A DNA stretch of 64,000 nucleotides from Gammaproteobacteria bacterium (GTDB lineage: Bacteria > Pseudomonadota > Gammaproteobacteria > Tethybacterales > Persebacteraceae), in contig OZ244916.1 in NCBI GenBank assembly GCA_965221835.1, forward strand, positions 654,477-718,476, written 5' to 3'. Shown piece after piece: positions 11,739-57,776 of this stretch (positions within the stretch are counted from its first letter, which is position 1; every line of letters begins with the position of its first letter). A model generated the notes under the pieces. The model saw only the letters and a list, made by a program, of their open reading frames with translations. It was not told where the DNA came from and did no database searches. The position numbers and the translations under genes are program-made.

Positions 11739-12251
11739 ATGCAAAAAAATATGTCCGAAATGCGCGCGCGATTTCGCCGCTATCTATCTTCGCTTTTGCT
11801 TGCAGAATTGTGCCGGGGAATGGCGCTGACTTTCCGGCAGATGTTCCGCCGCAAAATCACCGTGCATTTTCCCGAAGAAAAAACACCGCGCAGCCCCCGA
11901 TTTCGCGGACTGCACGCCTTGCGCCGCTATCCGAACGGCGAAGAACGATGCATCGCTTGCAAATTGTGCGAGGCGGTTTGTCCGGCGATGGCGATTCATA
12001 TCGCTTCCGAACAACGCGAAGACGGCAGCCGCCGCACTACTCAGTACGACATTGATTTAACCAAATGCATTTTTTGCGGAATGTGCGAAGAGGCGTGTCC
12101 CGTTGATGCAATTGTAGAAACGCATGTTTTGGAATATCACGGCGAACGGCGCGGCGATTTGTACTACACAAAAGAAATGCTGCTCGCCGTGGGCGATAAA
12201 TACGAAGCGGAAATCGCTTCCGCCCGCAAAACCGATGCCGCTTATCGCTAA
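11739..12251 (+). CDS. nuoI: NADH-quinone oxidoreductase subunit I (2x[4Fe-4S] ferredoxin). It is isolated from any nuo operon.
   Basis: The translation contains [31 protein letters not shown] and [18 protein letters not shown], and is near-identical to NuoI over its full length. A TATAAT box lies about 20 bp upstream. Confidence 0.85.
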
Positions 12252-14418
12252 ACTTTTCCGCGCAACGGCGGCGGCGATTGTTCTCGGCATATTGTCGCCA
12301 TCTTTCGCCGAACCCGTCTCGGCGTATTCGCCGGAAAAAGAAATAGAAGAATTGGAACAGCGGTTTGTGCGCCAAGAAATTCTCGCCTTGCAGCGGGTGG
12401 AAGATGTGGAAACGCGGATTGAAATATTGGACCGCCATTTCAATCGCGTTTTTTTGATTTTGGGATTATCGGCGGCACTTGCGTTGATGCTTTTCGCCGC
12501 CCATCAACGCAGTCGCAATCGCTTAAATACCGAACGCTTAAATCGTGCCGTGCGCGAAGCCGATATGTTGCGAGACGATATTCGCCGCGAATTGCATCGC
12601 CCGGAAACGGAGTTTTTGCGCATCGGACATTTTTTGCGAAGAATGATGCGCGAATCGCTGGACGCCAAACCCGCCGAACGACATTTTTCGGAAATTCGTG
12701 CCATTATTCGCGACCCTAATGTGCCGGTGTCGCTGCATTATATGGCGCAAATTTTGCTTTTTGAACACGATTCGCGTTGGCGAGATGCCGAACATGTTTT
12801 GGAACAACTTCGGCAAATGGATCCCGAAGATCCTTTCGTACTTTTGCATTTATTTCATGTACATACCCGCATTTCCGAAGGTTCGGGCGATTCGTACGAC
12901 CGCAAACGCCATCGTCAAACCGCAAATCAATACTACGCCCAATTTGCAGTTATCGCGCAAACAAAAGACATTCCCGCCTCTCCGGCAACGGCGAAAAAAT
13001 CCCCGCCCGCCCCGAAAACGCCGCCCCCGGCAATTGCCGCCGCCGAATCCGAATCCGAAAACGCTTCCAAAACTGCCGAAAACGATTCCGAATTTGATTC
13101 CGAATCCGCCGCCGAAAACATTACCAAAAACGCCGCTGAATCCAAATCCAAATCCGCCGCCGAATCCGAATCCAAATCCGCCGCCGAATCCGAATCCGAA
13201 TCTGCATCCAAAATTGCCGAAAACGTTTCTGAATCTGATTCCGAATCCGTTGCCAAATCCGCCGCCGAATCTAAATCCAAAACTTCCGAAAACGTTTCTG
13301 AATCTGATTCCGAAAACATTGTCAAAAACGCCGCTGAATCCGAATCCAAATCCGCCGCCGAATCTAAATCCAAAACTTCCGAAAACGTTTCTGAATCTGA
13401 TTCCGAATCTGCTTCCGAAAACATTGTCAAAAACGCTGTTGAATCTGAATCCAAAACTTCCGAAAATGTTTCTGAATCTGATTCCGAAAACATTGCCGAA
13501 AACGTTTCTGAATCTGAATCCAAAACTTCCGAAAAAGATTCCGAAAACGATTCTGAATCTGAATCCGAATCTGGTGCGGAAGTGCAAACGAATATTTCCA
13601 AACCGCAATCGGAAATTGTGCATACAAAACCCGCGCAATCGCCGCCGGTTAAAACCGAATTCGCTCCTCCTCAAATTGTACCGCCCAAACCGCCGAAAAC
13701 GGCGGAAACAAAGCCCGCTCCGAAAATGCCGCCGTCATTGCCGTCCGCCGCAAACGGCAAAAAACGTCCCGCCGAAAATTTATTAATGAAAAAAATCGGC
13801 AAACTATCATGGCGGGGAATCGGCGGCGCAATCAAAAACAAAACCGTCAATTTAATCGGCGAAGCAACGAATGTTGCCGGAAAAATTAACAACGGCGCGA
13901 ACGGCGACATCCCGCCGTTTTTGCCGGTGCCCGCAATTTCCGAATTGCCGGAAAAAAAAGGAACGGCAGAAAGCGAAATGTGGAAATGCATTCGCGCCGG
14001 TGATTTGGCAATGGCGCAAGCCGCCGCAGTTGCGAATATGCGTCATCGCAATCGTTTGATAGACCGCGCGTTAATTTCTTATGCGCAAGCGCAAGGACAC
14101 AAAACTAACGAAACTTTGTATTTGAATTGGGGATTGTCTTTGCTCGGCAAGGCGTTGCATTTGCCGCTCAAAAAACGCGAACCATTTTTTAATGCCGCCA
14201 TAGATAAATTTTTGGCGGGCAATGTTATCAGTCCGCACCGTTTTGATTTTTCGCTGGCGACTTTATACGCTATCATCGGGCGCGAAACCGAGTGCAAACA
14301 ATGGCTTGCCACAGCGCGCGAATCGGGAACGCTGAATTTGGAATCGTTGCATCATGCGCCCGATTTTGACGGCGTGCGCAATCAGCCGTGGTTTGCCGAA
14401 TTCATGCGCGACGAATGA
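12235..14418 (+). CDS. Hypothetical membrane protein. It has an N-terminal signal/anchor, a coiled coil, a second transmembrane segment, an acidic Ser/Glu-rich tandem-repeat region, a Pro/Lys-rich linker and a C-terminal helical (TPR-like) domain.
   Basis: The 727-aa reading starts at the ATG at 12235, overlapping the nuoI end. Hydrophobic segments [14 protein letters not shown] and [18 protein letters not shown] are present. Repeats of the form [31 protein letters not shown] recur. A proline-rich stretch, [28 protein letters not shown], follows. Confidence 0.6.
13020..13600 (+). repeat. Imperfect in-frame tandem repeats of roughly 69-bp units, encoding Ser/Glu/Lys-rich acidic repeats.
   Basis: The motif gaatc(c/t)gaatccaaa(a/t)c... 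recurs many times. Antisense and alternative-frame ORFs here are artefacts of this repeat: 12698-13786 (PNPNPP-rich) and 12850-13674 (GFGFGG-rich). Confidence 0.8.
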
Positions 14419-34747: not shown

Positions 34748-34793
34748 AACTTTCACCCGCCCCTTTTCCATTCCCGCGAAAATTGGGCGAGAA

Positions 34794-34930
34794 GATAAAT
34801 TTTTTTTTCGAACATTTTCGGATAAATTAAATTTGCACCATTTCCGCAACTCGTTTTTTATAGATAAATTTTTTTCGGACATTTTCGGATAAAATTAAAT
34901 TTGCACCATTTCCGCAACTCGTTTTTTATT
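34794..34930. repeat. Direct tandem duplication of a 68-bp unit. The two copies carry T9 and T7 homopolymer tracts.
   Basis: Two near-identical units read gataaat(T7-9)cg(a/g)acattttcggataaa(a)ttaaatttgcaccatttccgcaactcgtttttta. They are followed by a TATAAT box at about 34947. Confidence 0.8.
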
Positions 34931-34957: not shown

Positions 34958-35135
34958 ACCACATCACGCGAGATCTTTCCGACTCTGTCGGGTGGCTCGT
35001 GAATACAATACCCGATAACGGAGGGAATAATTAACCCGCCGGGGGAATAAACGGGGACATTCAGGAAGGTCTGCGTGTGATGTGGTAATCCTCCCGACTT
35101 TTTGGGGGACTTTGTCATTACCGCAAAGGACTACT
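34958..35135 (+). promoter_or_regulatory. Long structured 5' leader of the second MTase-HNH gene. A long-range stem (ACCACATCAC at 34958-34967, GTGATGTGGT at 35067-35076) encloses about 100 nt. The leader shows partial sequence similarity to the leader of copy 1.
   Basis: A 10-bp perfect long-range inverted repeat is present, with internal hairpins (CCGACTCTGTCGG). The motifs CCGACTC and TAACGG.GGG.ATAATT also occur in the leader of copy 1, which spans 26757-26600 on the minus strand. Confidence 0.4.
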
Positions 35136-36461
35136 GTGAACCAAGCGCAAATAGAGAACCGGACTCTGTTTACCGGCGACAATTTGGAAGTGATGCGCGC
35201 CGTCAATTCCGAGACGGTGGATTTGATTTATCTGGATCCGCCGTTTAACAAAAAATTCGTTTTTCCGATTGGAAAAGGCGATTCCGCCGAATTCGGATTT
35301 AAAGATATTTGGGGATGGGATAGCGCACCGGATGAAGGCAATCCGTATTTGCCGTACGCGGAGTTGGCGGCGTTTGACGAACTTGTGGCGGCGGAAGCGG
35401 ACGGCAATCCGTTAATAGACCGCAAGATGGCGAAAAACACCGTCCGCTTTTTGGAAACGATGGGACAAATCGCCGGCGAAGCGGAAATGGCGTATTTGTC
35501 GTTTATGGCGGCGCGTTTAATTGAAATGTGGCGGTTGCTGAAACCGACCGGCAGCATTTATTTGCACTGCGACCAAACAATGTCGCACTCGCTTAAACTT
35601 TTGATGGATATTGTTTTCGGTGAAAATAATTTCCGCAACGAAGTTATTTGGTGTTATGTCGGTGGCGGAAACGCAAAAAACGCTTTTAACAAAAAACATG
35701 ACACGGTCTTTTTTTACACGAAACAAAAAAATCGTTCGTTTTTTAATTGGAAAGATGTTGCTATGCCATATAATAATATTCCGCTTACGGCGCAATGGCG
35801 CAAAGGGTTTACAAACAGACAAGAAGCGGAAAAACGCGCCTTGGCAAAATATAAAGATGGCAAAGCGCGATATGATTGGTGGACGGATATTCCATCTTAT
35901 GGAACGGCTACGCGGAATCCCGAAAGAACCGGCTACCCGACTCAAAAACCGGTTTTGCTTTTGGAAAGAATCATAAAAGCGTCCAGCAACGAAGGCGATT
36001 TTGTTCTTGACCCGTTTTGCGGATGCGCGACAACTTGCGTTGCCGCCGAAAGATTAAACCGCCATTGGTGCGGAATTGATGTTGCCGAAAAAGCGGCGCA
36101 ACTCGTTCGCGCCCGCCTTCTTGCCGAAACAAAACAAGGCAAACTCGGCGACAAAGTACCGCAAGTGCATCACCGCGATTTCGGCAAAGGCGATTTTCCG
36201 ATGCGCACCGATTTGGGCGATTCGCGCAGTAAAAATATCCGCATAGTTTTGTTTGGAAATCAGGAAGGCAAATGCAATCTTTGTAAACGCCGTTTTGATT
36301 TGCGCGATTTTGAGGACGATCATATTATTCCGCGCAAAAAAGGCGGACCGGATGTTGACCGCAATTTGCAATTGCTTTGCAGTTCGTGCAACCGAATTAA
36401 ATCCACGCGCACAATGGAACAAGCCCGCAAACGACTGCGCGAATTGGGATACGCCGCTTAA
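35136..36461 (+). CDS. DNA methyltransferase (DPPF, beta-class) fused to a C-terminal HNH nuclease. This is copy 2, with a GTG start.
   Basis: It is about 70% identical at the protein level to the 25274-26599 product. The N-terminal 200 aa are near-identical, and the DNA is about 85-90% identical there. HNH motif: CNLCKRRFDLRDFEDDHIIPRKKGGPDVDRNLQLLCSSCN. An RBS (aaagga) lies 5 nt before the GTG. Confidence 0.8.
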   Translation: MNQAQIENRTLFTGDNLEVMRAVNSETVDLIYLDPPFNKKFVFPIGKGDSAEFGFKDIWGWDSAPDEGNPYLPYAELAAFDELVAAEADGNPLIDRKMAKNTVRFLETMGQIAGEAEMAYLSFMAARLIEMWRLLKPTGSIYLHCDQTMSHSLKLLMDIVFGENNFRNEVIWCYVGGGNAKNAFNKKHDTVFFYTKQKNRSFFNWKDVAMPYNNIPLTAQWRKGFTNRQEAEKRALAKYKDGKARYDWWTDIPSYGTATRNPERTGYPTQKPVLLLERIIKASSNEGDFVLDPFCGCATTCVAAERLNRHWCGIDVAEKAAQLVRARLLAETKQGKLGDKVPQVHHRDFGKGDFPMRTDLGDSRSKNIRIVLFGNQEGKCNLCKRRFDLRDFEDDHIIPRKKGGPDVDRNLQLLCSSCNRIKSTRTMEQARKRLRELGYAA

Positions 36462-42121: not shown

Positions 42122-43555
42122 TCAGAAACGATGAATCGCGTTTATTTGGAATCTGGCGTTTTCGGTGAAATCTTTTGCGTTTTCCCAGCGGAATCCGGCG
42201 GAGGGGAGAATCGTCCAGCCGTCATAACGGAAATTGCCTTGCAGATTTAACTCGTTGCGAGTTTCCGTTTCGCCTTTGTCATATTCGGAGTGCAGGCGAT
42301 AGACGGGGGAAAACATCATTAAACTCCCGTCTATATCCGCCGACAGCATAAATGAGGAGTTAGCCGTCTCGCCTGCAACGGATTCGGAAAATGCCGCTGT
42401 AAATAAATCGCCGTTATATTTTCCGCCCGATGTGTAGCGGAAATCACCGAAATCGCCGTTTGCGTTTGTTTGTTTTGCGGTGTAATACAAATGCCAATTG
42501 TCTTTGCGGAAATCCGCCCGTCCGCCGACATTTGCGTAATAGCCGCTTTCGGTTATGGAATAGCCGAAATCGGGCGACATATTAAAAGACGGAACGCCGC
42601 CTGCCAAAAATACCGCTATCACTCCGACAGCCAAAAGTCCGGTAGCGGTATTGATAGATTTTACCCTTCTCTCCTTATTATCCGCCCGATTTTGCGGTGT
42701 TTGCGTTGTCGGATTTTGCGTTTCCGGCGGATTAGTTCCCGTTTCCGTGTTGCCGTCTTGCGGATTTTCCGTTTCCGTGTTGTCGTCTTGCGGATTTGTT
42801 TGACAAATTCCGGCGTCGTCTCTTGTTTCAGTATCCAAACATGCGTCTACGCAAACGCCGTTAACAAAATCGGGAGTCGCCCCCGGGCAATCGGCGGCGG
42901 ATTCAATTGCACGGCAAGAAAGTCCGCCTGTTTCCAAAATCGGCAATTCATCGGTTGCACATTCGCATGCATCGCCCGCCTCGTTTAAGTTTGCAGTCGT
43001 GCCATCGCAAAAATCGGTTTCAATTATCGTATCGCAAGTTGTCGTTCTTCCCGCATCCGCCGCCGTGAAAGTAAACACATCGGTCAGCGGGATAGCATTT
43101 TCGGTTATATCCCGTGCAACGACAAGACAATCGCAGTTTGCGGGATCTGCACACTGATTCATTGCATGTGTGTGTGCCTCTGCTGCGGTGTCGCCTAGTC
43201 CCTCAATAGTTGCTACATCTCCTAAATTGGGTATGGATAAATCTGCATAAACGGCAAAATATTCCTCACCATTAACATTTCTTGCTACTGCTGAACAAGT
43301 ACTAGCAGTATCAGGATGAGATTGACATGTTAAAGCTGAATGAGCTACTGCAAGACGTTCCGTTTCTCCCATAACCTCCTCTGCAGGATAGCCGACAGCA
43401 ACACCGATAATAAGTATTGTTGGGTCTGGGCTGCCCGGACTAAAATCAGTATCAAATCCGGCAGTAGCAGCCCCTTCTGCATTTGCGGAAATGTTAGACA
43501 ATCCCGCCGCAAAAAAGACGGCGGCGATGATGATTTTATTGATTGTGTTTTTCAT
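42122..43555 (-). CDS. Hypothetical secreted or surface protein. It has a signal peptide, a Cys/Asp/Thr-rich central region, and a C-terminal region rich in aromatic/Gly beta-strands that ends in RF, which is outer-membrane-barrel-like.
   Basis: The start is at MKNTINKIIIAAVFFAAGLSNISANA with a strong RBS (gaggag). The C-terminus, ...FRWENAKDFTENARFQINAIHRF, has a terminal Phe. The listed 632-aa ORF over-extends into the upstream repeat array. Confidence 0.6.
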   Translation of the reverse strand: MKNTINKIIIAAVFFAAGLSNISANAEGAATAGFDTDFSPGSPDPTILIIGVAVGYPAEEVMGETERLAVAHSALTCQSHPDTASTCSAVARNVNGEEYFAVYADLSIPNLGDVATIEGLGDTAAEAHTHAMNQCADPANCDCLVVARDITENAIPLTDVFTFTAADAGRTTTCDTIIETDFCDGTTANLNEAGDACECATDELPILETGGLSCRAIESAADCPGATPDFVNGVCVDACLDTETRDDAGICQTNPQDDNTETENPQDGNTETGTNPPETQNPTTQTPQNRADNKERRVKSINTATGLLAVGVIAVFLAGGVPSFNMSPDFGYSITESGYYANVGGRADFRKDNWHLYYTAKQTNANGDFGDFRYTSGGKYNGDLFTAAFSESVAGETANSSFMLSADIDGSLMMFSPVYRLHSEYDKGETETRNELNLQGNFRYDGWTILPSAGFRWENAKDFTENARFQINAIHRF

Positions 43556-43684
43556 GGTTTTGCTCCTCTGATTAAAAATGTCTGCGAAAGTATAACACAT
43601 TCCGCCCGAATCAACAAAAAAACGGGCGGGTTCGGCAAGAAATGCGTAAATTGCTGATTTCCCGCCTTTTTTCTGCATTTCCGT

Positions 43685-43936
43685 GCGTTCGGAAATGTTT
43701 TCAGAGCGTTCCAAAATGTTTTCAGAGCGTTCGGAAATGTTTTCAGAGCATTCCGAAAAGTTTTCAGAGCGTTCGGAAATGTTTTCAGAGCATTCCGAAA
43801 TGTTTTCAGAGCATTCCGAAATGTTTTCAGAGCGTTCGGAAAAGTTTTCAGAGCGTTCGGAAATGTTTTCGGAGCGTTCGGAAATGTTTTCAGAGCATTC
43901 GGAAATGTTTTCAGAGCGTTCGGAAAAGTTTTCCGA
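43685..43936. repeat. Twelve tandem copies of a 21-bp unit (GCGTTCGGAAATGTTTTCAGA and variants), 130-380 bp upstream of the 42122-43555 gene.
   Basis: The units are head-to-tail with an exact 21-bp period and minor variants (gcattccgaaat, gcgttccaaaat). The ORFs 43642-44052 and 43683-43967 are translation artefacts of this array. Confidence 0.9.
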
Positions 43937-44035
43937 GACCTCGCAAAACATTTGCGGGGTTTTGTGAACGCCCTTTTTTGCCGAAAATTTTCGGCTGTGG
44001 TACAATTGGCATTCGCACATTTGGAATTGAAATTA

Positions 44036-45307
44036 ATGAACGAAACTTTTAATCAGACCGCCGCCCCGTCCGTTTCGGGGGGCGATATTGCCCGTGCCGC
44101 CCGCACCGCCGCACCCGTTATGTCGCGATTGCCGAGTGCAGTCAAAAACGCGGTATTGCAATTTTTTGTTGAAGAATTGCGCGATCAATCCGCGCGCATT
44201 ATTGCCGAAAATCGGCGCGATATGGAAGCCGGTGCCGGTTTGCCGGAGTCGCTAAAAGACCGCCTGCTTTTGGACGAAAAACGTCTGAATGCGATGGCGG
44301 CGGGAATCGGCGAAGTTATCGCCTTGCCCGACCCGATAGGCGAAATCGCAAACGCCATCGTCCGCCCTTCCGGAATTCGTGTCGGACAAATGCGCGTGCC
44401 GCTCGGCGTGATTTTGGCGATTTACGAATCGCGTCCGAATGTCACCGCAGACATCGCCGCCTTGGCATTAAAATCGGGCAACGCCGTTATTTTGCGCGGC
44501 GGCAGCGAAGCGAAATATAGCAACACCGCCATCGGCGATTGTCTCAACGCCGCGTTGCAAAAAGCCGAATTGCCGCCCGCCGCCGCACAAGTTGTCGCCG
44601 ATCCGTCCCGCAGTTTGGTGGATGAATTGTTGGCATGCGGCGACGATATTGATCTCGCCATTCCGCGCGGCGGACGCGGTCTGATAGAACGCGTTGCAAA
44701 AATCGCGCGGATGCCGGTGTTGAAACATTTGGACGGCAACTGCCATGTGTATGTGGACGCCGCCGCCGATTTAACAATGGCGGAAAAAATTGTAGAAAAC
44801 GCAAAAACCAGACGCTATGGCGTATGTTGTGCCGCCGAAAGTTTGCTGGTGCATCGCGATATTGCCGCCGTTTTTTTGCCGTCTATCGCATCTGTTTTTG
44901 CCAAACACGGCGTGGAAATTCGCGGCTGTCCGGCGACTCGCAAAATCATAAAATGCAAAACGGCGACGGCAGACGATTGGCGCAGCGAATATCTCGCGCC
45001 GATTATCAGCGTCAAAATCGTGCCGGATGCGGACGCCGCAATCGCGCACATAAACGAATTCGGTTCCGGGCATACCGATGCGATTGTGTCGGACAGCGTC
45101 AAAATCGGCGAACGATTTTTGCGCGAAGTGGATTCGTCTTCCGTGATTCTAAACGCGTCCACCGCATTTGCGGACGGCGGCGAATACGGTCTCGGCGCGG
45201 AAGTCGGAATTTCCACCGGCAAATTGCACGCCCGCGGTCCCGTCGGGCTTTGCGGTCTTACATGCCAAAAATATGTCGTCATCGGCGACGGCGCATTGCG
45301 CGCCTGA
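44036..45307 (+). CDS. proA: Gamma-glutamyl phosphate reductase.
   Basis: The translation begins MNETFNQ and contains aldehyde dehydrogenase-family motifs. It is 423 aa. Confidence 0.85.
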   Translation: MNETFNQTAAPSVSGGDIARAARTAAPVMSRLPSAVKNAVLQFFVEELRDQSARIIAENRRDMEAGAGLPESLKDRLLLDEKRLNAMAAGIGEVIALPDPIGEIANAIVRPSGIRVGQMRVPLGVILAIYESRPNVTADIAALALKSGNAVILRGGSEAKYSNTAIGDCLNAALQKAELPPAAAQVVADPSRSLVDELLACGDDIDLAIPRGGRGLIERVAKIARMPVLKHLDGNCHVYVDAAADLTMAEKIVENAKTRRYGVCCAAESLLVHRDIAAVFLPSIASVFAKHGVEIRGCPATRKIIKCKTATADDWRSEYLAPIISVKIVPDADAAIAHINEFGSGHTDAIVSDSVKIGERFLREVDSSSVILNASTAFADGGEYGLGAEVGISTGKLHARGPVGLCGLTCQKYVVIGDGALRA

Positions 45308-56657: not shown

Positions 56658-57776
56658 AAATTCCGAATTTCATCGGAATGGTAGAAGTTGGAAATTAGGA
56701 AAATAAAATTCACCATTCCCGTGAACGCGGCGGAATTCCGCAAAAAAACCCCGTCATTCCCGCGAAAGCGGGAATCCATTACGGGCGATTAATTTTAGAA
56801 TTTCCGCAAATTTTACGCGAAAATTAAATTTGAAAATTCCCGCATTTTTTCGCAAAAAACGAAGTGAAAGCGCGAATTTTACGCGAAAATTAAATTTGAA
56901 ATTCCCGCGAATTTTAAGCGAAAAACCCCCGTCATTCCCGCGAAAGCGGGAATCCATTACGGACGATTAAATTTGCAATTCCCGCAAATTTTACGCGAAA
57001 ATTAAGTTTGAAATTCCCGCACATTTTTTTGTGAAAAACGAGGTGAAGGCGGGAATTTGTCGGTAAAAATGGATTCCCGCTTTCGCGGGAATGACGGCGG
57101 GAATCCGCACATTTTACGCGAAAATTAAGTTTGGAATTTCCGCAAATTTTACGCAAAAAACCCCGTCATTCCCGCGAAAGCGGGAATCCATTACGGGAGA
57201 TTAATTTTAGAATTTCCGCGAATTTTACGCGAAAATTAAGTTTGGAATTTCCGCGAATTTTTTCGCAAAAAACGAGGTGAATGCGAGGGTTTGTCAGTAA
57301 AAATGGATTCCCGCTTTCGCGAGAATGACAAGGTGAAACCGCAAATTTTATGCGAAAATTAAGTTTCGCGAATTTTACGCAAAAAAACCCCGTCATTCCC
57401 GCGAACGCGGGAATCCATTACGGGAGATTAATTTTAGAATTTCCGCAAATTTTACGCGAAAATTAAGTTTGGAATTTCCGCATTTTTTCGCAAAAAACGA
57501 GGTGAAAGCGCGAAAACGAGGTGAATGCGGGAATCCATTTTGTCGCGAAAATTAAGTTTGGATTCCCGCTTTCGCGGGAATGACGGCGGGAATCCGCACA
57601 TTTTACGCGAAAATTAAGTTTGGAATTTCCATATTTTTTCGCAAAAAACGAGGTGAATGCGGGATTTTGTCGGTAAAAAATTCCCGCTTTCGCGGGAATG
57701 ACAAGGTGAAACCGTGAATTTTAAGAAAAAATTAAGTTTGGAATTTCCGTGCATTTTTTCGCGAAAAGGGTGGGAA
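56658..57776. repeat. NIME-like array of about 1.1 kb. It contains multiple dRS3 units (ATTCCCGCGAAAGCGGGAAT) in both orientations, separated by RS-like blocks of about 100-150 bp.
   Basis: At least 8 dRS3 copies are present. The block GATTAATTTTAGAATTTCCGCAAATTTTACGCGAAAATTAAGTTTGGAATTTCCGC recurs. The many small ORFs here are artefacts. Confidence 0.85.

Follow-up and report, generated by a model that had tools for sequence, protein, structure and literature searches.

The intergenic element studied here is an array of twelve 21-base-pair (bp) tandem repeats, designated type B, at positions 43685-43936 of the window, that is, of the whole 64,000-nucleotide (nt) stretch of contig OZ244916.1 that was analysed. 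It separates proA from a divergent gene for a 477-amino-acid (aa) protein of a large orphan family, and it is a non-coding, DNA-level minisatellite element. Arrays of the same period and of several unit sequences occupy the same place upstream of other family members, and, as judged from their sequences, whole array-bearing cassettes have been exchanged between paralogous loci and between co-occurring strains. We propose, with somewhat less than even confidence, that the arrays are a protein-docking module that lies upstream of the family promoter, is phased with the helix and is shuffled by recombination.

Period-21 arrays upstream of an orphan gene family

The type-B array consists of 12 contiguous, ungapped 21-bp units. 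The Tandem Repeats Finder call (43678-43937, period 21, 12.4 copies, 89% matches, 0% indels, score 408) agrees with the original prediction of twelve 21-bp repeats, which is thereby borne out. Twelve sites match the consensus GCGTTCGGAAATGTTTTCAGA with no more than three mismatches, all of them inside the array, compared with 0.02 expected from dinucleotide-preserving shuffles. All units are more AT-rich than the window as a whole, with a GC content of 24-43% versus 52.8%. The unit core is a 7-bp palindrome, TTC-S-GAA, in which a central G-to-C change recurs in units 4, 6 and 7, and the core of unit 2 reads TTCCAAA. This variant had been described as a flip of GG to CC; a recurrent core variant is indeed present, but the double change is not, since a single central substitution produces it. 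Of the two forms, TTCGGAA is the reverse complement of TTCCGAA. Positions 3 (G/A), 12 (T/A) and 19 (A/G/C) of the unit also vary recurrently.

Measured from the ATG of the 477-aa gene (43555, minus strand), the array extends from 130 to 381 bp upstream, at approximately -100 to -350 relative to the predicted transcription start. Its placement upstream of this gene, as first proposed, is correct, but the array is equally upstream of the divergent proA (ATG 44036, plus strand), and a leader of about 70 bp stands between it and the predicted core promoter of the 477-aa gene. The units are arranged head to tail in non-coding DNA between the two start codons, as in a minisatellite, with no conserved open reading frame (ORF) across them. 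They abut without the spacers of clustered regularly interspaced short palindromic repeats (CRISPR), and the dRS3-type inverted repeat ATTCCC-N8-GGGAAT, a mark of neisserial intergenic mosaic elements (NIMEs), is absent from 43685-43936.

A query of the protein database with the concatenated open frames of the arrays retrieved P0070, a 737-aa gene call whose N terminus is a translated array. The corresponding locus (L014), downstream of ribBA-ribH-nusB-thiL-pgpA-cinA, encodes a different paralogue with an identical signal peptide, ribosome-binding site (RBS), promoter and leader; about 17 units make up its type-B array, the distal ones strongly degenerate yet in 21-bp register. Locus L020 likewise combines a type-B array of about 11 units with an identical leader, promoter and signal peptide. 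Other loci carry other units in this place. Type D (AAATGTTTTGCGAGGTCTACG) occurs in 9.4 copies at one locus in two strains (L015 and L019), whose arrays are identical, and in 11.6 copies at L017, and type E (TTTGGTTACGGAATTAAATTG) in 11 copies at L016, a locus that in another sample (L018) has type D in 10.6 copies in place of E. L021 contains NIME-like repeats only, without a 21-bp array. The arrays at these other chromosomal loci adjoin rib, ftsK, purA and kdsB genes.

The period is exactly 21 in every array, and the total length is 190-360 bp. The gap between array and ATG is about 120-150 bp everywhere except at L015/L019 (about 228 bp), and all arrays precede a shared segment, TCAGC..TTTACGC..TTGCCGAACCCGCCCG-T(6-9), which is followed by the core promoter. 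This core promoter module was present upstream of every family member examined (21 loci), and the leader is kept beside B, C and E arrays at five loci.

The consensus units were compared in all rotations and on both strands, with shuffled units as the reference. B and D matched at 15 of 21 positions, solely in inverted orientation (P < 0.004), and C and E matched the other types at no more than 12 of 21, no better than chance. Amplification to 9-17 copies, at the same place and with the same 21-bp period, has therefore affected no fewer than three unrelated sequences, of which one is present in both orientations. Edge units are more degenerate than central units. In type E, 11 of the 13 minimum mutations fall within a 7-bp block and a 14-bp core is near-invariant (scan statistic, P ~0.004). 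Tandem repeats of the spacers that lie outside the arrays have periods of 22-24 bp (2-3 copies only), 70, 81, 86, 94 and 124 bp.

The strains at the proA locus were compared using 12 syntenic loci, obtained from three ENA metagenome assemblies by exact TrkA look-up and through two close homologues of the 477-aa protein; with the window, 13 sequences were available. The analysis as a whole drew on 20 related loci. Their housekeeping flanks are 99.0-99.6% identical to those of the window, and the sequences therefore come from co-occurring strains of one species. The intergenic region measures 424-444 bp between fixed anchors in all 13 sequences and exists in three forms. Allele 1 (10 of 13) contains two NIME-like 124-bp units bounded by ATTCCCGCGAAAGCGGGAAT and no 21-bp array, allele 2 (the window and L011) a type-B array of 12 units in each, and allele 3 (L005) a type-C array with TGCAAATTTTTATACTGTTCA in 8.8 copies.

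The arrays of the window and L011 differ by two substitutions and no indel (99.2% identity), with the variant units in the same order. This divergence equals that of the housekeeping flanks, whereas the 477-aa gene is only 95% identical. Copy number is stable over 0.5-1% divergence in the two same-allele strain pairs compared, with 12 units in both the window and L011 and identical arrays in L015 and L019. The polymorphism seen consists of the presence or absence of an array and the replacement of its type, not of changes in unit number, as far as these two pairwise comparisons go. The original idea of a copy-number-variable spacer that tunes expression thus found no backing in the strain comparison, where variation takes the form of cassette replacement. 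Strains differ by the swap of whole cassettes, presumably through homologous recombination. The conversion tracts end at differing points: L011 keeps the resident RBS and signal-peptide variant, and the window has the variant of L014 and L016-L018. Scans of JGI metagenomes and GTDB genomes for the exact 21-bp unit, and of JGI metagenomes for the leader, gave no match, and a ProA-based search of GTDB for the locus gave a single, distant match (49%).

Possible roles of the arrays

At least three interchangeable cassettes of 21-bp period (B; D, which is B-like and inverted; C and E, which are unrelated) constitute a distal upstream module within a 5' cassette of conserved order: array, leader hairpin, core promoter, RBS and signal peptide. 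In the proposed mechanism, the arrays would act as docking platforms for one or more oligomerising DNA-binding proteins, either silencers or architectural proteins or type-specific regulators, and the docked proteins would determine how active the neighbouring family promoter is. Strains would then come to differ in expression by cassette replacement, and perhaps by length changes of the poly-T and (TG)n tracts in the core promoter, rather than by slippage of 21-bp units. Since the 21-bp period, the similar length and the fixed position are shared by unrelated units, selection for helical phasing is considered their most likely cause. The orientation independence of B and D fits a role at the DNA level, and the invariant core and variable block of type E form a pattern typical of protein-binding repeats. 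It had been suggested earlier that a 21-bp period, equal to two helical turns, would place a bound regulator on one face of the DNA; the exact period extends across unrelated arrays, which keeps this face-of-helix model alive.

Several observations weigh against the docking proposal. The commonest allele at the proA locus has no 21-bp array, and its genes look intact in most strains, suggesting that the array is dispensable. A terminator-shaped hairpin stands between array and promoter. Variable sites are not significantly clustered in B, C and D, no motif is common to all four unit types, and neither curvature nor single-strand structure exceeds that of 21-bp arrays made of shuffled units. 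Moreover, all types may descend from a common ancestor, with the period simply inherited. Inspection by eye for GGA motifs of the CsrA-sponge type and for the IHF, Fis and ARG box consensus revealed none that is consistent across unit types.

A more specific version treats the unit types as address labels, each being a cooperative operator array for its own DNA-binding protein, so that cassette swaps between paralogues and strains would re-wire which family members answer to which regulator. We consider this version improbable. If true, it would represent combinatorial expression switching by exchangeable operator arrays, not by slippage or inversion.

The alternative that survives best is a neutral minisatellite that arose once upstream of an ancestral family member, spread with the 5' cassette by duplication and conversion, and diverged at each locus by unequal crossing-over (concerted evolution) while its period was inherited. 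This accords with the homology of B and D despite their inversion, with copy numbers of 9-17 across loci, and with the degenerate array edges, as predicted by unequal exchange. In addition, short tandem repeats of 21-24 bp period are common in the mosaic spacers, and NIME-like repeats stand in place of the array in 10 of the 13 strains without obvious harm. However, C and E have no detectable similarity to B or D beside a leader that is at least 90% identical, and neutrality would therefore need extreme, array-specific divergence without one register-breaking indel. The strongly kept 14-bp core of type E is a further point against it. Neutral origin and spread is thus regarded as possible, though doubtful.

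Alternatively, the arrays, combined with the leader and signal peptide on the 5' side and the C-terminal domain on the 3' side, might serve as blocks of homology that aid gene conversion of the variable middle of the gene between paralogues, in the manner of the 70-bp repeats upstream of trypanosome variant surface glycoprotein genes or the NIMEs beside neisserial surface genes. One array type is found at different loci and different types at one locus, the ends of conversion tracts vary between L011 and the window, and the surface gene is 94-96% identical where the flanks reach at least 99%, all of which such a role would accommodate. However, leader, promoter and signal peptide already supply about 200 bp of homology, and differing array types would hinder exchange. 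A tandem array is not needed for this purpose, and the 21-bp period would stay unexplained, which makes this role decidedly unlikely.

It is very unlikely that the array is a contingency switch in which slippage of 21-bp units alters promoter output at high frequency. Copy numbers do differ across paralogous loci (11, 12 and 17 for B, 9.4-11.6 for D), and the family bears other signs of contingency, namely the poly-T run of 6-9, the (TG)n tract and variable glycine runs in extended ORFs. On the other hand, the window and L011 both have 12 units at 0.8% divergence, the arrays of L015 and L019 are identical, and the unit is far longer than classical slipped-strand repeats (1-9 bp). The array also lies about 100 bp from the predicted start, and the gain or loss of two helical turns at that distance upstream would have no obvious effect on the promoter.

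Intrinsic curvature, by which phased A/T tracts would activate the promoter or recruit an H-NS-like silencer, was assessed with a Bolshoy-Trifonov wedge model, which, when checked, gave the curvature of phased A-tracts and the contrast between A4T4 and T4A4 correctly. With an end-to-end/contour ratio of 0.67, the B array is more curved than 99.4% of the 252-bp windows in the sequence, and C is curved too. But the model assigns coherent curvature to every 21-bp tandem repeat, and the real arrays fall at the 45th (B), 47th (D) and 27th (C) percentiles of arrays with shuffled units, with E essentially straight (0.98-1.0). Curvature is therefore a consequence of the period, not a property that the arrays share through selection, and this explanation is highly improbable.

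Least probable of all are a coding role, with heptads such as (SENISER)n, and an iteron array or centromere of an integrated replicon. Five of the six frames of the repeat are open, with a minus-strand frame running into the signal peptide (ORF 42122-44020), gene-caller fusions exist (P0070, 737 aa; L011, 625 aa; the 'ProA' of L005, 555 aa), and the gene-sense unit resembles a Ser/Glu/Asn coding repeat of the window at 17 of 21 positions in the same codon phase; yet a coding role is rejected, because the array is followed by a promoter, a Shine-Dalgarno (SD) sequence and a complete signal peptide with no SD or conserved start upstream, the antisense ORF from the leader start is 136 aa here and only 20-25 aa beside the D and E arrays (L016-L018 leaders), B and D are inverted relative to the gene, and there is no excess of synonymous changes. 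The original prediction of an iteron-like operator also fails: although a series of 12 direct repeats, each about 21 bp long, is reminiscent of iterons or of sopC-type arrays, the surrounding genes (gltB, that of the orphan secreted protein, proA, trkA and trkH) include neither rep nor par, the arrays stand at six or more chromosomal loci, and plasmid and phage similarity searches were empty.

Structured RNA was tried and rejected as a separate candidate. The best Rfam hit scored 31 bits versus a gathering score of 249, with top matches mostly to eukaryotic miRNA and snoRNA models, and fold energies of the RNA or single strand lay within -1.7 to +1.4 standard deviations of tandem controls with shuffled units.

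Host-associated bacteria usually control their variable surface-protein families through short slippery repeats, invertible promoters or the conversion of silent cassettes. In the present case, in a dominant, strain-rich, uncultured and symbiont-like lineage, a large orphan family shares one promoter cassette with interchangeable 21-bp arrays upstream. If the arrays dock proteins, cassette swaps would be a distinct way for co-existing strains to diversify what they express at the surface; neutral arrays would still be useful strain markers. The strict two-turn period across unrelated units is a concrete oddity.

The 477-aa gene family, its promoters and other elements of the window

The features at the locus are collected in Table 1. 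The predicted core promoter of the 477-aa gene was read from the sequence, having been missed by a consensus scan because its -35 matches at three of six bases only; in the spacer, that scan matched the sigma-70 consensus only at the proA promoter. The core promoter overlaps a hairpin, CCGCCCG-N14-CGGGCGG. The leader RNA folds at -21.3 kcal/mol (z = -2.9), and its shape is that of a bidirectional intrinsic terminator, suggesting that it may function as one. On the other side of the spacer, the predicted proA promoter has its -35 set within a perfect 16-bp palindrome, GCCGAAAATTTTCGGC (43980-43995). Palindrome and -35 are confined to the B allele, and TGTGGTACAAT is kept in all 13 strains; in non-B alleles the proA -35 region is rich in GC, and it is the extended -10 TGTGGTACAAT on which the promoter depends.

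Table 1 Predicted features between and around the 477-aa gene and proA in the window
Feature	Position	Strand	Details
477-aa orphan-family member	42122..43555	-	Sec signal peptide MKNTINKIIIAAVFFAAGLSNISANA; Cys-rich hypervariable middle; conserved ~170-aa C-terminal domain ending ...HRF
Ribosome-binding site	43563..43569	-	AGAGGAG, 7 nt before ATG 43555
Predicted core promoter of the 477-aa gene	43589..43617	-	-35 TTGTTG (43617-43612), 17-nt spacer, TGT-extended -10 TATACT (43594-43589)
Shared leader	43616..43684	-	Terminator-shaped hairpin A-run-GGCGGG...CCCGCC-U-run; same reading on both strands
Leader motif			GCCGAACCCGCCCG-T(6-9)
Type-B array	43685..43936	.	Plus-strand unit GCGTTCGGAAATGTTTTCAGA; gene-sense unit TCTGAAAACATTTCCGAACGC
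Lone type-D flanking unit, distal	43937..43957	-	Gene-sense CCGCAAATGTTTTGCGAGGTC; matches type-D unit AAATGTTTTGCGAGGTC of other loci
Predicted proA promoter	43978..44006	+	TTGCCG, 17 nt, TG-TACAAT
proA (aldehyde dehydrogenase family)	44036..45307	+	Divergent neighbour; trkA and trkH follow

The family core promoter (43589-43640 in the window; the same module in L001-L021) contains two short tracts of variable length. A poly-T run of 6-9 adjoins or overlaps the -35, with T6, T7 and T8 among the strains at the proA locus alone. Directly before the -10 is a (TG)n tract, which reads TGTGT-TATACT in the window alone (17-nt spacer) and TGTGTGT-TATACT in the others (19 nt). Both tracts are better candidates for a slipped-strand promoter switch than the 21-bp array.

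The 477-aa gene, beyond which gltB is located, encodes a protein without a match in Pfam, NCBIfam or PDB sequences and, by exact look-up, without an identical copy among recorded proteins. Its family is large, with at least 10 matches on one 3.2-Mb contig, and has a near-invariant signal peptide. The full-length structure model (predicted local distance difference test, pLDDT, 44) was too poor for use, and the C-terminal domain was modelled instead (pLDDT 76.8; one helix and about 11 beta strands). The best structural matches of this model are all outer-membrane beta-barrels, including porins and the invasin/intimin beta-domain, but they are weak (E >= 0.019, TM <= 0.5). Signal peptide and model together suggest a secreted protein, probably anchored in the outer membrane. 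As for the earlier label of surface-protein gene, secretion is upheld by the signal peptide; because the barrel matches are weak, anchoring, and with it the label, is plausible and not proven.

The gene family shows further variation. In L004, L006 and L010 the orthologue of 42122-43555 is split into two or three ORFs (e.g. 246 + 55 + 177 aa), which suggests frameshifts or pseudogenisation. A 30-bp coding repeat for an NPQDDNTETE-type linker has two copies in the window (42739-42797) and 4.2 in L001 (6760-6885), that is, copy number varies inside the coding region. Some of the paralogues P0003, P0008, P0017, P0019, P0036 and P0120-P0128 are called with N-terminal extensions that hold ...KGGG(3 to 6 G)YNSLKG... 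before the signal peptide, and the number of glycines varies among cluster members. These protein sequences, the sole source in this case, suggest a variable poly-G DNA tract beside a TATAAC-like -10, as in a classical phase-variable homopolymer. A 316-aa IS30-type transposase (HTH_38 + rve) of the same size is found beside family members at L007 (354-1304) and L014 (7569-8519).

NIME-like mosaic repeats (units of 35, 124, 178 and 234 bp; ATTCCCGCGAAAGCGGGAAT hairpins) are present in the window at 56744-57533 and in L001-L004, L006-L010, L012 and L021. An origin of the 21-bp units from adjoining NIME-like repeats was considered and rejected, the similarity being not significant. Both kinds of repeat are open in most frames, and gene calls therefore run through them, which has introduced false N-terminal extensions and small ORFs into public protein sets (ProA of 488 aa in L001/L002 and 555 aa in L005; 625 aa in L011; P0070, 737 aa; L017 887-1504, 205 aa).

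Elsewhere in the window, a CRISPR-like array at 1316-1877 has about 9-10 copies of a 36-bp repeat, GTTTCAATCCACACCCGCCCAAATGGACGGGTGAAT, with spacers of about 30 bp, and adjoins a 400-aa ORF (24-1226). The Ser/Glu/Asn-rich coding repeat (13037-13573; periods 6, 12, 24, 69 and 105) lies in ORF 12124-14418 (+), whose 764-aa product has a TPR-like end and a weak match to staphylococcal SD-repeat models. Its resemblance to the gene-sense 21-bp unit, in the phase of SENI (P < 0.01 versus shuffles), could reflect a shared origin or a compositional coincidence. At 35082-36461 (+) is a fusion of a DNA methylase and an HNH nuclease (N6_N4_Mtase + HNH), preceded by two copies of a 68-bp AT-rich tandem repeat (34793-34929).

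Regarding the host, the Lon protease encoded in the window shares 70% identity with its counterpart in Candidatus Persebacteraceae bacterium Df01 and about 55% with those of Zoogloea and Thauera, which points to a Tethybacterales-like lineage. Tethybacterales are described from sponges and nudibranchs.

Comparison with known repeat systems

No description of such 21-bp arrays was found in the literature. Bacterial intergenic minisatellites, or variable-number tandem repeats (VNTRs), such as the mycobacterial interspersed repetitive unit (MIRU-VNTR) loci, are likewise non-coding head-to-tail repeats of tens of bp with locus-dependent copy numbers and degenerate edges. Unlike VNTRs, however, the 21-bp arrays comprise several unrelated units with one exact period, at one position in the 5' cassette of one family, and vary between strains by cassette replacement instead of copy number.

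NIMEs are repeat units (RS) flanked by dRS3 (ATTCCC-N8-GGGAAT) and are found beside surface-protein genes of N. meningitidis. The 124-bp units of the alternative allele at the proA locus, bounded by ATTCCCGCGAAAGCGGGAAT, fit this dRS3/NIME pattern. The family loci resemble NIME regions in having mosaic, recombination-prone repeat blocks beside variable surface-protein genes, but the 21-bp array is a homogeneous tandem without a dRS3-like inverted repeat, and the organism is not Neisseria.

In the vlhA (pMGA) family of Mycoplasma gallisepticum, a (GAA)n tract lies upstream of each promoter. Here, too, each member of a multigene family for surface proteins has its own tandem tract ahead of a conserved promoter. 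The vlhA unit measures 3 bp, and its exact copy number, changed by slippage, governs expression, whereas the present units are 21 bp long, stable in number and of several unrelated sequences.

Plasmid systems offer another parallel in the 22-bp iterons of RK2 and R6K, the 12 x 43-bp sopC of F and the parC of R1. The 21-bp arrays share with iterons and centromere arrays the approximately ten direct repeats and a period of about two turns and, at least in type E, a kept core with a variable spacer, as is typical where proteins bind cooperatively. They differ in that no replication or partition gene is nearby and in that many chromosomal copies exist, always with one gene family.

Simple sequence repeats (SSRs) in promoters of Neisseria and Haemophilus include the poly-G of porA, the TAAA of nadA and the 7-bp repeats of hmw (PMC3639595, PMC8262952, PMC12721329). 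These, like the 21-bp arrays, are repeats in control regions of surface-protein genes of host-associated bacteria. However, their units are 1-7 bp long, change in number at high frequency and occupy the promoter spacer, the stretch directly before the -35 or the 5' untranslated region, while the 21-bp array has a longer period, is distal and is stable. The poly-T and (TG)n tracts of the family's core promoter are the closer analogues of these SSRs. The 21-bp arrays are set apart from VNTRs, NIMEs, vlhA tracts and SSRs by their long unit, by a two-turn period maintained across unrelated units, and by variation through cassette replacement.

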